Assembly (NCBI GenBank): GCA_024233835.1
Contig: JACKPC010000001.1
Location: 1,477,442-1,541,441, forward strand
Reading direction: 5' to 3'
Length of the DNA: 64,000 nucleotides
Source: Leptospiraceae bacterium
GTDB taxonomy: Bacteria > Spirochaetota > Leptospiria > Leptospirales > Leptospiraceae
Position numbers and translations under genes: made by a program. The notes under the pieces are model-generated. The model did not search any database. It had not been told where the DNA came from and saw nothing but the letters and a program-made list of their open reading frames with translations. This document shows, in pieces, positions 20,438 to 26,593 of the stretch; the first letter of the stretch is position 1; every line of letters begins with the position of its first letter.

Positions 20438-22879
20438 ATGAAAACCTCTCCAAAAGAAAAGAGAACCAGAGAAAAATTAATTGATCCGGCTTTGAAAAAA
20501 GCGGGATGGGATTTTGAAAAACAGGTTGGCATGGAAGTAAAGCTGACCGATGGGAAAATTTTAGTCAATGGCACTTTGACACGGAGAGAAGATGCCCGAT
20601 ATGCGGATTATGTTTTGTATTTCAAACCCAATATTCCTATTGCTATCATTGAAGCAAAGGAAGAAAATCAATCTGCCAGAAAGGGTTTGCAGCAGGCATT
20701 GGATTATGCTTCTATGCTGGATGTGCCCTTTGTTTTTAGCACGAATGGAAAGTCCTTTATCTTTCATGATAAAACTGTAGCCGATGGAGAAATCGAAACA
20801 GAACTATCTATGGATGAATTTCCTTCGCCAAAAGAACTCTGGGAAAAATACAAAATCTATCATGGGATAACAGAAGAAAAACAGGTAAAAGTGATTGAGC
20901 AGGACTTTTATTTTGATGGTAGCGATAGAAAGCCGAGGTATTATCAACAGGTTGCTATCAACAAAGTAATTCGAGAAATTGCCAAAGGAAAAAACCGGCT
21001 TTTGCTTGTCATGGCAACAGGAACCGGAAAGACCTATACCGCTTTTCAGATTGCGTATCGTCTCTGGAAAAATGGTAGCAAGAAAAAGATTTTGTTTTTG
21101 GCAGATAGAACCGCATTGATTGATCAGACACGCAGGGGAGATTTTAAACACTTCAAAGACAACCTGACGGTTATCAAGAAAAAAGTAATTGAGCAGGGCG
21201 GAAAACAAAGGTTAATTTCCAACAAGAAAAGAGGCATTGATTCTTCCGACAAGGCTTATGAGATTTATCTCGGTTTGTATCAGGGTTTAAGCGATGCCGA
21301 CGGAATCGAAGATGCTTATAAAGATTTTCCGAGAGATTTTTTTGATTTGATTATCGTGGATGAGTGCCATAGGGGAAGTGCCAAAGCTGATAGTGCTTGG
21401 AGAGAAATACTAACTTATTTCCAATCGGCAACCCAGATCGGTATGACCGCGACTCCTAAAGAAACAAAAAAGATTTCCAATATTGAATATTTTGGTGATC
21501 CTGTTTATACCTATTCGCTCAAACAGGGAATCAATGACGGCTTTTTAGCTCCTTATAAAGTGATTCGTTTAACGTTAAATATTGATAAGGATGGTTGGCA
21601 ACCACCGAAAGGTTATTTGGATAAAAAAGGCAAACCGGTTAAAAATAGGATCTATAACCTGAAAGATTTTGATAAAAATCTTGTAGTAGAAGAACGCAGG
21701 AAAGTAGTTGCACAAAAAATCACCGAATATCTAAAAGGCAATAAACAACGTTATGCGAAAACGATCCTTTTTTGTGTGGATATAGAACACGCCGAAGGAA
21801 TGACGACCGCACTTATCAACGCAAATGCGGACATCTGTAGATCGAATGATAAATACGTTATGCAAATTACCGGGGATAATGAGGAAGGCAAAAGGGAACT
21901 GGATAATTTTACCAATCCCGAAGAGCCATATCCCACAATTGTTACCACTTCCAAACTATTGACAACAGGAGTAGATGCAAAAACCTGTAAGGTAATTGTC
22001 TTGGATAGTAACATTCAGTCGATGACAGAGTTTAAGCAAATCATCGGTCGTGGTACGAGGATTGATGAAGATTATGATAAGAGATATTTTACAATATTAG
22101 ATTTTAGAAATGTTACCAAATTATTTGAAGATGAGGAGTTTGATGGAGAACCTGTTAAAATCAAAATTAGTACAGAAAATGAAGACCTTTCCGATTTTGA
22201 AGAGGAAGGTTCTTTGGAAAATGATAAGGATTCTTTAGAATCAGAGAAGAAAAACCCCGGTCTTATAAAAGCACATTCTTCAACAAAATCGCCTAAACCA
22301 CCACGACCACCCAAAAAAGAAAAAGTATATGTGAATGGAATTAACGTCACTCTTCTTTTGGAAAGAAATCTTTTCTTTGATAGAGAAGGAAGGCCTATTA
22401 CAGAAAGTTTGGTGGATTATACAAAACCTATCATCCAGAAGAAATTCAAAACACTCAAAGCTTTCTTGAAAAAGTGGAACTCTGTAGAAAGAAAAACCGC
22501 CATTATCAAAGAACTCGAAGCGGATGGTGTCCTTATCGAAGAGCTTAAAAAAGCTGTTGATAAGAATGTAGATATTTTTGATCTTATCTGTCATATAGCT
22601 TATGATATGCCTCCATTGACCAGAAGGGAAAGAGCGAATAACGTCAAGAAAAGAAACTACTTTACCAAGTATGGAGAAACCGCCCGCAAGGTGATAGACG
22701 CTCTGATTGATAAATATTCCGATGGTGGATTTGAAAATCTGGAAAGTGGTGAGGTTCTTTATTTAGAACCTTTTAGTGAATACGGTTCACCGATGGAAAT
22801 CATTGAAGAATTTGGTGGACTTGAGGATTATAACAAGACAATTAAAGAAATAGAAAACTATATTTATGAGGTGGCTTAA
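20438..22879 (+). CDS. hsdR: Type I restriction enzyme R subunit (EcoEI/type IB-like, 813 aa)
   Basis: N-terminal KLIDPALKKAGW restriction domain, DEAD-box helicase motifs (MATGTGKT, DECHR), C-terminal EcoEI_R_C-like domain. Confidence 0.9.
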   Translation: MKTSPKEKRTREKLIDPALKKAGWDFEKQVGMEVKLTDGKILVNGTLTRREDARYADYVLYFKPNIPIAIIEAKEENQSARKGLQQALDYASMLDVPFVFSTNGKSFIFHDKTVADGEIETELSMDEFPSPKELWEKYKIYHGITEEKQVKVIEQDFYFDGSDRKPRYYQQVAINKVIREIAKGKNRLLLVMATGTGKTYTAFQIAYRLWKNGSKKKILFLADRTALIDQTRRGDFKHFKDNLTVIKKKVIEQGGKQRLISNKKRGIDSSDKAYEIYLGLYQGLSDADGIEDAYKDFPRDFFDLIIVDECHRGSAKADSAWREILTYFQSATQIGMTATPKETKKISNIEYFGDPVYTYSLKQGINDGFLAPYKVIRLTLNIDKDGWQPPKGYLDKKGKPVKNRIYNLKDFDKNLVVEERRKVVAQKITEYLKGNKQRYAKTILFCVDIEHAEGMTTALINANADICRSNDKYVMQITGDNEEGKRELDNFTNPEEPYPTIVTTSKLLTTGVDAKTCKVIVLDSNIQSMTEFKQIIGRGTRIDEDYDKRYFTILDFRNVTKLFEDEEFDGEPVKIKISTENEDLSDFEEEGSLENDKDSLESEKKNPGLIKAHSSTKSPKPPRPPKKEKVYVNGINVTLLLERNLFFDREGRPITESLVDYTKPIIQKKFKTLKAFLKKWNSVERKTAIIKELEADGVLIEELKKAVDKNVDIFDLICHIAYDMPPLTRRERANNVKKRNYFTKYGETARKVIDALIDKYSDGGFENLESGEVLYLEPFSEYGSPMEIIEEFGGLEDYNKTIKEIENYIYEVA

Positions 22880-24315
22880 TGTCAGTTAATATTTCGGGTG
22901 TTTTAAAATCGATTCGGGATTTTATGCGTCAGGATGCAGGCTTGAACGGTGATGCACAGAGATTGGAACAACTTGGCTGGATGATTTTTTTAAAAATCTT
23001 CAGTGATAAGGATAAAGAATTACAGTTCACTTCCAATGGAAAGTATAAGTCACCCTTACCGGAAAAATATCATTGGGAGAATATTAAGAAATATGCAGAT
23101 ACCGAAAAAGCGGAAGATTTTTTAACCTTTATTGATCAGGGATTATTTAAAGATTTAAAAGAGTTGGATATAAGCACCGGAAACGAAAGAGTCAAACTTC
23201 TCAAGAATGTGTTTGAAGGAAATAATAATTATATGAAGTCCGGCACGCTTTTGAAAAAGGTAATCTACAAACTGGATGAAATTAATTTTAACAGAGCAAA
23301 GGATAAACATGTTTTTGGTGATATTTATGAAACCATGCTCAAAGAATTGCAAAGTGCGGGAAAGAGTGGAGAGTTTTATACACCGAGAGCTATAACCCAG
23401 TTTTTGACCGATATAGTAGACCCAAAAATCGGTGAAAAAGTTTTGGATCCGGCATGTGGAACCGGTGGTTTCTTATCTGCCTGTGTAGAGAAGTTGAAAA
23501 CTTTAGCAAAGACTACAAAGGAGAGAGACTCTATCCAAAAAAATATTATGGGTATAGAGTTCAAACCTCTTCCGTATATGTTAGCAGTTACGAATATGAT
23601 TTTGCACGATGTGGCTCTTCCTTCGATTGAAGAAAGGGACTCTTTGGACAAACCAGTTACGGAATACAAAGAAAAAGATCGTGTAGACATCATCCTTGCC
23701 AATCCTCCTTTTGGTGGAGTAGTGACAGAAGGATACGAAAAGAACTTTCCTTTGAACTACAGGACAAAAGAAAGTGCGGATTTGTTTCTTGTGCTATTTA
23801 TCAATCTATTGAAAGAAGGTGGACGGGCTGCTATTGTTCTACCGGATGGCTCGCTTACCGGTGATGGCGTTAAACAGCGGATACGGGAACTCTGGATGAC
23901 GAAGTGCAATTTACATACAATCATTCGGCTGCCAAATTCGGTCTTTCAGCCTTATGCTTCGGTAGCAACAAATTTATTGTTTTTTGAAAAAGGAACACCT
24001 ACAAAGGATATTTGGTATTATGAACATACCCTGCCCGAAGGTCAAAAGTCCTACAGCAAAACTAAACCCATTCAGGTGAATGAATTTGACCCGATCAAGA
24101 AGTGGTGGAATAAACGCAAAGAGAGTGAAGTTTGCTGGAAAGTCAATATCAAGGAAATCGAAGCTCGCGGTTATGACCTCGATATAAAAAACCCCAATAA
24201 AAAAGAAGAAGAGCACGAGTATACCAGCAAGGAATTAATCTCCATGCTCGGAGAATCATTTTCCAAAAGCGATAAAATTTTGAAGGTAATCCAAAAGGAA
24301 TTGAAAGTTGGATAA
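22879..24315 (+). CDS. hsdM: Type I RM N6-adenine DNA methyltransferase M subunit
   Basis: NPPFG catalytic motif and the AdoMet motif DPACGTGGFL. Start overlaps the hsdR stop (ATGA-type coupling). Confidence 0.9.
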   Translation: MSVNISGVLKSIRDFMRQDAGLNGDAQRLEQLGWMIFLKIFSDKDKELQFTSNGKYKSPLPEKYHWENIKKYADTEKAEDFLTFIDQGLFKDLKELDISTGNERVKLLKNVFEGNNNYMKSGTLLKKVIYKLDEINFNRAKDKHVFGDIYETMLKELQSAGKSGEFYTPRAITQFLTDIVDPKIGEKVLDPACGTGGFLSACVEKLKTLAKTTKERDSIQKNIMGIEFKPLPYMLAVTNMILHDVALPSIEERDSLDKPVTEYKEKDRVDIILANPPFGGVVTEGYEKNFPLNYRTKESADLFLVLFINLLKEGGRAAIVLPDGSLTGDGVKQRIRELWMTKCNLHTIIRLPNSVFQPYASVATNLLFFEKGTPTKDIWYYEHTLPEGQKSYSKTKPIQVNEFDPIKKWWNKRKESEVCWKVNIKEIEARGYDLDIKNPNKKEEEHEYTSKELISMLGESFSKSDKILKVIQKELKVG

Positions 24316-24694
24316 CCCTGCATCACAGTTTATCATTTATACCACCGAGTTGGGAGATACCCGGATCGATGTCCGAATGGAAGAAGAAACCGTCTGGCTA
24401 TCCCAAAAGCAAATGGCGGAGTTGTATCAAAAAGATGTGAGAACGGTTAATGAACATATTCAAAACATCTATTCAGAAGAAGAGCTTCTACCGGAGGCAA
24501 CTATCCGGAATTTCCGGATAGTTCAACAGGAGGGAAAAAGACAGGTTTCGCGTGATATTGACCATTATAATCTGGATATGATTCTCTCTGTCGGTTACAG
24601 GATTAAATCGTCTATTGCGACTCGTTTCCGCCAGTGGGCTACCGAAAGGCTGAGGGAATACATCATCAAAGGGAAAATAAATGTCTTTGTATAA
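24308..24694 (+). pseudogene. rhuM: RhuM-family (Fic/DOC-like) virulence-protein gene, N-terminal 128-aa fragment only
   Basis: Matches the RhuM N-terminus through LREYIIKG, then diverges (KINVFV*) where full-length RhuM continues F.MDDERLK for ~200 more residues. Confidence 0.7.
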
Positions 24695-25256
24695 AAATAA
24701 ATACCGCATCGAATCTGCCCGAAAAAAGAATTGGGATTATACCAGCCCGGCATATTATTTTATCACGATATGCACCAGGGACAGAAAACATTATTTTGGT
24801 GAAATAAAAAATGGAATCATGGAATTAAATCCTGTGGGAAAAATCATTCACGATGAATGGTACAAAACCCAATCCATGCGTCCGAATATATATTTGGATG
24901 AATTTATTATCATGCCCAACCATATTCATGGAATTATCCAAATTGATTATAAACATCATCGTAGAGACGCGTTGCATCATCGTAGAGACGCGTTGCAATG
25001 CGTCTCTACGATGATGCATTATTCGTACGTATATATCCAAAATATATCGCATATTGTCCGTGGATTTAAATCATCCTGTACCAATCGAATCCATACAGAA
25101 ATCGGTTGTGAATTTGAATGGCAATCCCGTTTTTATGATCGTGTCATCCGAACCGAACCGGAATTACATAACACACGGAAATATATAAAAAACAATCCAA
25201 AAAAATGGCAATCCGTGTATGATTCCCGTGACAGAAAACAGGAAAAAATCCAATGA
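24681..25256 (+). CDS. tnpA: IS200/IS605-family Y1 (HUH) transposase, REP-associated tyrosine transposase (RAYT)-like
   Basis: HUH motif NHIHGII and catalytic Tyr motif WQSRFYDRVIR, 191 aa. Start overlaps the rhuM fragment and the stop overlaps the hsdS start (ATGA). Confidence 0.8.
   Translation: MSLYKNKYRIESARKKNWDYTSPAYYFITICTRDRKHYFGEIKNGIMELNPVGKIIHDEWYKTQSMRPNIYLDEFIIMPNHIHGIIQIDYKHHRRDALHHRRDALQCVSTMMHYSYVYIQNISHIVRGFKSSCTNRIHTEIGCEFEWQSRFYDRVIRTEPELHNTRKYIKNNPKKWQSVYDSRDRKQEKIQ
24954..25016. repeat. 63-bp composite repeat inside tnpA: a 21-bp unit (catcatcgtagagacgcgttg) duplicated in tandem, then its inverted copy; forms a ~20-bp palindrome with one mismatch
   Basis: Read directly: 24954-24974 and 24975-24995 are identical; 24996-25016 is the reverse complement with one mismatch. 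The whole structure stays in frame (HHRRDALHHRRDALQCVSTMMH). Confidence 0.9.
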
Positions 25257-26593
25257 ATAAAAACGAATGGCGAAAGGTGAAATTGGGGGATGTGATTTCA
25301 GCACGGAATGAACGGTATAAACCTGATGACGATTATATTTCAAAGTTACAAAGGATAGATAAAATTGATTTTACTGGAAATATATTTTTATCAAACAATC
25401 CATCAAAAACGGATATGATTTTAATTAAACCGGGTGATTTTGTAATTTCAGGAATCAATGTTGCAAAAGGTGCATTAGCAGTTTATAATGGAACGGAAGA
25501 AGTATCTGCTACTATTCATTATTCTTCCTATACATTAAACGAAAAAGAATTATATTTGGATTATTTTAAAAGTTTTTTACGAAGTTCGGAATTTTTACGA
25601 TTATTACAAGAACAAATTCCCGGTGGTATTAAAACAGAAGTAAAACCAAAGCATATTTTACCTTTAGAAATTTCCCTACCTCCCTTATCCGAACAAAAGC
25701 GAATCTCAGCCAAATTGCAATCCATCCAAGCACAGCACACAGAACTTACCGCCGAAATACAAAACCAAAAATCCTATATCAAGCAACTTAAACAGGCAAT
25801 CTTGCAGGATGCTGTCACAGGAAAGCTAACAGAAGATTGGCGAAAGACCCAAGCGGGAAAAAACGCAGGCAATGCCAGAGAACTCTTGGAGCAAATCAAA
25901 GCAGAGAAAGAAAAGCTCATCGCCGAGGGCAAGATAAAAAAACAGAAACCGTTACCACCGATAAAACAGGAAGAGATACCTTTTGACTTGCCAGCGGGTT
26001 GGGTTTGGACGAGATTGGGGGTGGTGATTGATGACAAACCAAAAAATGGTTATTCACCTAAAGAAGTTAGCTATCCAACAGAAATTAAGAGCTTAAAATT
26101 AGGAGCTACAACTTGGGGAACTTTTAATTCAAATGAATACAAATATATAGATGAAGTTATTCCTAAAGAATCTCCATATTGGTTAAAAAATGGAGATATT
26201 TTAATTCAAAGAAGTAATTCTTTAGATTATGTCGGAGTGAGTGCAGTATACGATAGAGAAGATTTTCAATTTATTTATCCGGATTTAATGATGAAAATTC
26301 GTTCAGTTATTATTTCAGCTAAAAGCTTACATCTTTTGTTGTCTTCTCCTTATATGAGAAATTACTTTAGAGCAAATGCTAAAGGTGCACAAAAAACAAT
26401 GCCAAAAATTAATCAGGATATAGTTATTAATGCGTTACTCCCACTCCCACCCCTCGCCGAGCAGGAAGAAATCGTGCGGCGGGTGGATGTGTTGTTTGCT
26501 CAGGTGAAGGAGCTGGAACAGGAAGTGGAGAAACGCGAAAAGTATGCAGAAAGCTTGATGCAGGTTGTTTTAAGCGAAGCGTTGCGCGGGTGA
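25253..26593 (+). CDS. hsdS: Type I RM specificity subunit with two target-recognition domains
   Basis: Typical HsdS N-terminus (WRKVKLGDVIS) and two conserved spacer regions (LPPLSEQKRI...; LPLPPLAEQEEIVRRVD...). Confidence 0.85.
   Translation: MNKNEWRKVKLGDVISARNERYKPDDDYISKLQRIDKIDFTGNIFLSNNPSKTDMILIKPGDFVISGINVAKGALAVYNGTEEVSATIHYSSYTLNEKELYLDYFKSFLRSSEFLRLLQEQIPGGIKTEVKPKHILPLEISLPPLSEQKRISAKLQSIQAQHTELTAEIQNQKSYIKQLKQAILQDAVTGKLTEDWRKTQAGKNAGNARELLEQIKAEKEKLIAEGKIKKQKPLPPIKQEEIPFDLPAGWVWTRLGVVIDDKPKNGYSPKEVSYPTEIKSLKLGATTWGTFNSNEYKYIDEVIPKESPYWLKNGDILIQRSNSLDYVGVSAVYDREDFQFIYPDLMMKIRSVIISAKSLHLLLSSPYMRNYFRANAKGAQKTMPKINQDIVINALLPLPPLAEQEEIVRRVDVLFAQVKELEQEVEKREKYAESLMQVVLSEALRG

Follow-up and report, generated by a model that had tools for sequence, protein, structure and literature searches.

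Related systems

Group 4 of the RAYTs reportedly goes back to Bertels et al. in 2017. Quentin, Siguier, Chandler and Fichant (2018, BMC Genomics 19:475, PMC6006769) defined subclass 2.4 of TnpA_REP and equated it with this group. The parts of their article used here, including Table 1, characterize subclass 2.4 by the motifs NH[IFV]H, WQ and YIxNNP, a median length of 194 aa, an 8-aa insertion at the end of αB and a highly variable insertion between β3 and αC, which contains short DNA repeats. The associated REPs are of the "double foot" type, and in-frame REPs between the HuH and Tyr motifs are already reported for genes of this subclass. Flanking REPs within about 1 kb are described for the large majority of members, but not for all of them. 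As far as these parts of the article go, an in-gene REP is a documented hallmark of subclass 2.4 that has been in print since 2018. In-frame REPs in other genes are documented as well (Di Nocera et al. 2013, PMC3733652).

Here we describe such an element in a MAG of the Leptospiraceae, a group not named in the parts of PMC6006769 considered here. The window, i.e. the whole stretch of 64 kb that was analysed, contains a 63-nt palindromic structure within a RAYT gene. We read this structure as a 28-nt double-foot REP that lies in frame inside the gene of its presumed cognate subclass 2.4 enzyme, and assign a probability of roughly 85% to this reading. What is particular to the copy in the window is the duplication of one arm and the absence of flanking REPs.

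The gene and its palindrome can also be compared with more distant systems. With E. coli TnpA_REP and its REP/BIME elements (subclass 2.2; PDB-entry 4ER8) they share the HuH/Y1 fold and a GTAG-footed hairpin as the presumed substrate. E. coli REPs, however, differ from the REP in the window: they are extragenic, have a single foot and a bulge, and number in the hundreds. The E. coli gene contains no internal REP and carries the motifs DHLH, WE and YIHYNP. Rickettsia palindromic elements (RPEs) and the intragenic GTAG/CGTC REPs described by Di Nocera et al. (2013) are further cases of a short palindrome tolerated in frame, presumably in a surface loop. The window differs from these in that the host gene encodes the element's own presumed mobilising enzyme and that the site is common to the family. 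Known RPEs also differ in sequence from the REP in the window, and RPE-1 is described as a longer insert.

IS200/IS605 TnpA (subclass 1.1) belongs to the same superfamily and recognises imperfect hairpins on single strands. In contrast to the palindrome in the window, the hairpins of IS200 are subterminal, located at the ends of the element and outside the ORF; IS200 is multi-copy and has the motifs DH[VI]H and Y[IV]ENQ. Membership of the window gene in IS200/IS605 was rejected, because its motifs differ, it has no element ends (the ORF overlaps both neighbours) and it is present in a single copy in the window. A literature search with the head sequence of the REP returned primer coincidences only.

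Structure of the palindrome

The palindrome is built from a 21-nt unit, CATCATCGTAGAGACGCGTTG, which occupies positions 24954-24974 and is repeated perfectly at 24975-24995 (direct inspection and repeat search). Positions 24996-25016 are the reverse complement of this unit with one mismatch, a G in the left arm opposite a T in the right arm (plus strand). The tandem duplication followed by an inverted copy, as given in the preliminary description, is thus present in the sequence. The dyad of about 42 bp proposed there is present too, but its extent was slightly too short: the full arms (24973-24995 and 24996-25018) comprise 23 nt each and are 96% complementary, with no spacer between them. An arm match of this kind was found in none of 100 shuffles of the window. 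The second left arm directly adjoins the dyad centre, while the first one, the extra tandem copy, consists of a 7-nt extension (CATCATC) and a half-REP, GTAGAGACGCGTTG. Pairing of this first copy with the right arm yields a second, equally good hairpin register with 17 nt in between. As single-stranded DNA, the region is predicted to fold with -28.3 kcal/mol, compared with -12.1 ± 2.5 kcal/mol for shuffled sequences (z = -6.5; none of 200 shuffles as good), which bears out the strong hairpin that had been supposed.

The 28-nt double-foot REP core, GTAGAGACGCGTTGCAATGCGTCTCTAC (24982-25009, no strand assigned), is centred on the dyad and reads GTAG-AGACGCGTTG|CAATGCGTCT-CTAC, or GTAGAGACGC-N8-GCGTCTCTAC as a degenerate pattern. 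Complementarity continues for 7 nt past each foot (CATCATC and GATGATG). Table S1 of PMC6006769 contains, for a subclass member from Chloroflexus aggregans, the sequence GTAGAGACGCACGGCCGTGCGTCTCTAC, which has the same architecture as the core. As expected for a REP, the stem-loop is stable, falls within the size range of 20-40 nt and has a GTAG foot at its base (fold and hairpin scan). The extragenic location of REPs is not found here, since the element lies in frame inside the ORF at 24681-25256; REPs within genes are known as exceptions. The whole 63-nt structure is translated as residues 92-112 of 191 (HHRRDALHHRRDALQCVSTMM). These residues lie between the HuH motif (N80-H83) and the Tyr motif (Y168), in agreement with the placement stated previously. 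The earlier suggestion of a REP-like or IS-end-like target captured in frame also holds in a specific form: the core is a GTAG...CTAC double-foot REP as catalogued for this subclass in the parts of PMC6006769 used here.

The host gene

The RAYT gene (24681-25256, plus strand) encodes a protein of 191 aa, similar to the median length of 194 aa of subclass 2.4 (RAYT Group 4), and shows the features of this subclass. The HuH motif is N80-H81-I82-H83 (24918-24929), WQ is represented by W147-Q148 and YIxNNP by Y168-I-K-N-N-P173 (25182-25199), which contains the catalytic Tyr168. P79, H81 and H83 are invariant in the homologue alignment. The HuH motif aligns to the HuH strand of 4ER8, and YIKNNP aligns to YIYINP of 4er8_A. 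A variable insertion between β3 and αC, short DNA repeats and an in-frame REP of the form 5' GT[AG]G ... C[TC]AC 3' are present as well, and the distribution across phyla is patchy, as in the subclass. The gene differs from usual subclass 2.4 members in several respects. Flanking REPs within about 1 kb were not found, nor any others elsewhere in the 64 kb; the dyad is 7 nt longer past each foot and one complete arm is duplicated; and the gene is tightly packed among those of a type I R-M operon, with its start and stop codons overlapping the neighbouring ORFs.

A profile alignment to 4er8_A relates W94, Q95, E100, H101 and R104 of E. coli TnpA_REP to W147, Q148, D153, R154 and R157 of the window protein, all within the segment WQSRFYDRVIR (25119-25151). 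According to the parts of PMC6006769 used here, these E. coli residues bind the GTAG guide; the contacting W, Q and R are conserved in the window protein.

Family profiles recognize the protein poorly. Its score against Pfam Y1_Tnp (PF01797) is 21.2 bits, below the cut-off of 23, and its score against NCBIfam REP_Tyr_transpos (NF047646) is 50.2 bits, below the cut-off of 80, likely because the insert splits the domain. A search nevertheless gave 5641 homologues at E ≤ 0.001. The AlphaFold2 model has a mean pLDDT of 80, and its best match in the PDB is 4er8_A, E. coli TnpA_REP in complex with a REP hairpin (E = 5e-07, TM 0.53/0.61), followed by the TnpA structures of IS608 and ISDra2. This match of the predicted fold compensates for the low scores against the Y1 HuH families. 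In the model, a strand (residues 81-88) is followed by residues of low confidence (94-116) and then by a helix (122-141). Residues 94-103 and 105-116 have pLDDT values below 50, compared with block means above 90 for most of the core. The REP-coded peptide is thus predicted to be a permissive loop without confident structure between the HuH strand (β3) and αC. Comparison of the conserved blocks with a homologue of 78% identity (L081) resulted in a dN/dS of 0.083 at a dS of 0.89. This ratio indicates purifying selection, and by this measure the gene is functional.

Genomic setting

The gene lies tightly between the genes of a type I R-M operon (20438-26593), in the order hsdR, hsdM, truncated rhuM, RAYT and hsdS, all on the plus strand. 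hsdR (20438-22879) and hsdM (22879-24315) were identified from ORFs and profile searches and from the Pfam labels of an identical Logan contig (L083). The truncated RhuM-family ORF (24308-24694, 128 aa) covers profile positions 1-59 of 252 and overlaps the start of the RAYT gene by 14 nt, and the start of hsdS (25253-26593) overlaps the RAYT stop codon (ATGA). The rest of rhuM was not found downstream of 24308-24694, where hsdS follows directly after the RAYT gene. We conclude that a deletion accompanied the arrival of the RAYT gene.

Similarity to L081 at the DNA level starts approximately 13 nt upstream of the ATG and ends approximately 50 nt before the stop codon of the window gene, near the stop codon in L081. 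There, the RAYT gene is located between a truncated DUF1016 gene and hsdM. A contig from a Bacteroidales MAG (L014:7655-14171) has the order hsdR, RAYT, hsdM, REP array and hsdS, and in three other loci (L038, L006 and L078) hsdM or rhuM is found within approximately 2 kb of the RAYT gene.

Judged by eye, R-M genes may accompany the RAYT gene (about 6 of 82 loci) more often than expected by chance.

Palindromes in homologous genes

We aligned 40 homologues at the protein level and retrieved the loci of 80 homologous genes; these come from Bacteroidota, Ignavibacteria, Patescibacteria, Chloroflexota, Cyanobacteria, Planctomycetota, Cloacimonadota and others. The aligned proteins vary in length from 165 to 268 aa, and nearly all of this variation is found at a single site, the region of the palindrome, which confirms it as a length-variable insertion. 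The peptides at this site are of the types RDA[LM][HQ][CRG]VST, VETH[CG][NY]ASLQ or EETLQCNVST. About 60 of the 80 loci contain a strong palindrome 270-340 nt into the gene. With a strict double-foot definition (GT[AG]G ... C[TC]AC and at least nine paired positions counted from the feet), a palindrome was found at the same place in 39 of the 80. The in-gene REP is missing from about a quarter of the homologues, several of which have flanking REPs. REPs outside the gene were observed at 20 of the 80 loci, mostly no more than a few hundred nucleotides away from either end of the gene. In many cases their sequence is identical or similar to that of the in-gene copy of the locus.

The in-gene copies are read in frame 0 (23 copies) or in frame 1 (19 copies) and never in frame 2; the third frame is absent because the TAG inside GTAG would be read as a stop codon. 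All 40 aligned copies have the same GTAG and CTAC feet. Feet and head (GTAGAGAC and GTCTCTAC) together are nearly invariant, whereas the inner stem is free to vary and yet remains complementary. At 15 of 20 stem pairs both sides have changed with pairing kept, and the covariation score reaches 0.46, where shuffles give 0.15 and slid partners no more than 0.13; the input had been preselected as palindromic, which makes the paired percentage partly circular. Ordinary coding sequence, with the same residues in homologues and no symmetry in their DNA, is not what was found: the homologues keep the symmetry of the DNA and not the peptide. Judging from these comparisons, the conserved object is the DNA dyad, and the peptide a by-product read in either of the two stop-free frames.

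The closest comparison is again that with L081. L081 has this REP in the same position; its arms reach 30 nt with one mismatch, and neither of them is duplicated. The palindromes of the window and L081 differ at 2 of 42 nt, the genes as a whole at 21%, which shows that the palindrome is old and constrained at the nucleic-acid level. The recent origin considered in the preliminary description is not tenable, as a homologue at a dS of about 0.9 has the palindrome in the same position.

Such conservation, far stronger than in the rest of the gene, could also mean that the hairpin is not a tolerated passenger but a selected cis-regulatory element, either an mRNA stem-loop or an operator bound by the enzyme, that keeps transposase levels low. 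At the RNA level it could act by attenuation of transcription or translation or as an RNase III site. The presence of a palindrome at the same site in half or more of the homologues points in the same direction, and REPs elsewhere have been reported to act on mRNA (PMC3733652). A terminator scan flagged a 20-bp stem followed by TTATTCGT. The U-tract is poor, however, and a terminator at this position would also cut off the translationally coupled hsdS; an intrinsic terminator was set aside for its weak T-tract and is retained only as part of the regulatory alternative. A sense-strand bias towards G-U pairs is not seen among the mismatches of the homologues (6 A/C versus 2 G/T, which are small numbers), and the quarter of the homologues without an in-gene REP, several of them with flanking REPs instead, does not fit a regulatory element well. 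An Rfam scan gave only sub-threshold matches to generic miRNA hairpins (best 32 bits, gathering score 60), which we took as look-alikes.

Most of the double-foot in-gene REPs (35 of 42) are perfect through the very centre, with GCATGC, AATT, CGCG, TTAA or GGCC at this position. The loop of a hairpin does not need a self-complementary centre, and an RNA hairpin does not need it either. This hints at copying of one arm from the other or at a role of the dyad as a duplex, rather than at selection for a stem-loop alone. We consider the cis-regulatory alternative unlikely on balance; there is weak support for a possible role in autoregulation or at the level of RNA.

Duplication of the arm

The duplicated unit is one whole 21-nt arm. 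It extends from the outer edge of the palindrome to the dyad centre, with an ambiguity of 2 nt, and its duplication results in two left arms and one right arm. Since palindromes are difficult to assemble, we considered whether the duplication, or the palindrome itself, is an assembly artefact, as had been suspected. A contig of another Leptospiraceae MAG at NCBI (JAGRNG010000643.1, L082) includes all three arms, two left and one right, and stops exactly on the last base of the palindrome (window position 25016), which shows that assemblers struggle here. The exact 576-nt gene including the duplication is, however, present in five Logan assemblies from different runs, in addition to this partial contig. 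Furthermore, the 63-nt structure is shorter than a read, and the same architecture is found in homologues from dozens of assemblies. An artefact is rejected on the basis of the identical independent assemblies and has, in our estimate, a negligible probability; the end of JAGRNG010000643.1 at the palindrome reflects fragility of assembly.

The gene call on JAGRNG010000643.1 is a fragment of 112 aa. It seems that assemblies tend to break at intragenic REPs and that RAYT annotations are truncated as a result.

Arm numbers are also unequal in approximately 12 of the 80 homologues, with two to four left arms and one right arm or with one left arm and two right arms (e.g. L039, L073, L020, L059 and L042). 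The same imbalance is seen beside extragenic REPs (L088, L089, L117, L105 and L124). Between hsdM and hsdS of the Bacteroidales MAG (L014:12078-13001), 5.2 tandem copies of a 179-bp unit with 95% matches form an array, and within each unit 2.4 copies of a 19-nt left-arm repeat, CGCGATGCGATGGTAGAGA, are followed by a double-foot REP. The occurrence in genes, at extragenic copies and in every unit of this array makes arm duplication a recurrent property of this type of REP. It is consistent with the "short repeats" mentioned in the parts of PMC6006769 used here.

One homologue (P0010) shows a larger rearrangement. At alignment columns of about 165-260, about 50 aa including the HuH motif are duplicated in tandem (ELRPDMNLYQGEFVVMPNHFHAIIGIG.NEFNTPSRGMGRDAMHCVST twice); each duplicate ends at a peptide encoded by a REP, and a PHE/PHK repeat comes next.

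Slipped mispairing at the hairpin during replication is the most likely source of the extra arm, although the microhomology at the junction of the duplication amounts to 2 nt only (CA), which is weak for simple slippage. Replication slippage, which had been put forward for the structure as a whole, is plausible for this extra arm only, given the one-arm tandem copies in homologous genes and next to extragenic REPs. Alternatively, the transposase itself could have made the extra arm by cleaving and rejoining its own REP, and the dyad may have grown outwards in the same way. The boundaries of the duplicated unit, which coincide within 2 nt with the outer edge and the centre of the palindrome, would fit such an activity, as would the recurrence of whole-arm tandem copies in unrelated lineages and at extragenic REPs, and the duplication in P0010 that ends at REP copies. 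Stalling of replication at the hairpin predicts the same boundaries, however, and known cleavage by TnpA_REP, as established for E. coli, takes place at the foot side of the hairpin and not at its apex. An arm made by the transposase seems rather improbable to us.

Copies elsewhere

In the 64-kb window, a search that allowed as many as 3 mismatches gave no further copy of the arm, and neither the 10-nt head nor a strong GTAG-footed hairpin was found a second time. The usual flanking REPs are thus absent here, and a REP-like family around the locus, as envisaged in the preliminary description, was not found within these 64 kb. The genome may hold this one copy of the REP only.

Outside the window, a perfect 28-mer variant of the core, GTAGAGACGCATTGCAATGCGTCTCTAC, is present in at least 120 metagenome contigs. 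Among the matches listed, the boundaries of these copies are sharp at 28 nt and their flanks are unrelated, 115 of 126 occurrences have no RAYT gene in the fetched stretch, and about half lie within stop-free stretches of at least 100 aa. The REP type of the window therefore appears to behave as a dispersed REP elsewhere.

Several copies of GTAGAGACGCATTGCAATGCGTCTCTAC were observed within stop-free stretches of more than 1000 codons on unrelated contigs (e.g. L120:5356, L139:5706/6972/7371, L146:2209 and L194:6596), three of them in one long stretch of L139. The pattern on contigs L088-L207 suggests in-frame insertions of REPs into large genes.

Proposed mechanism

Based on the palindrome, its homologues and the structural model we propose the following history for the in-gene REP. 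The enzyme would act preferentially near its own gene, in cis, and by this route a REP would have arrived in the gene and would stay there. The loop between β3 and αC is probably the only place in the gene that tolerates an in-frame insert of 28 nt. Survival of only those insertions that are located in this loop and in a stop-free frame would explain both the shared site and the two frames observed. On single-stranded DNA, the encoded enzyme would recognise the GTAG-footed hairpin as a genuine substrate and bind it via the conserved W-Q...D-R..R patch, by analogy with E. coli TnpA_REP. In the lineage of the window, the dyad has grown by 7 nt beyond each foot, after which one 21-nt arm was duplicated in tandem, leaving two possible hairpin registers. 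The lack of flanking or other REP copies in the 64 kb and the Pfam and NCBIfam scores below the cut-offs count against this explanation.

A more far-reaching reading would combine several of the elements above. The in-gene REP would then be a selected "master copy" that makes enzyme and substrate one heritable unit, either to found a new REP family once the gene has been transferred horizontally or for self-regulation; the action of the enzyme would drive the gains and losses of arms to which the loop owes its hypervariability, and the repeated lodging in type I R-M operons could reflect a functional link with defence loci. We regard this combination as quite unlikely.

Implications

The phenomenon as such has been published since 2018 and opens no new question. 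A REP within the coding sequence explains why RAYT genes of this kind score below the Pfam and NCBIfam cut-offs, why odd peptides (e.g. RDAxxxVST or VETxxxASL) turn up in their proteins, and why MAG contigs break at the in-gene REP. The locus described here is a clean example, as the sole REP in 64 kb is the copy inside the RAYT gene. The question of founder or passenger requires a locus of this kind, with a solitary in-gene REP.
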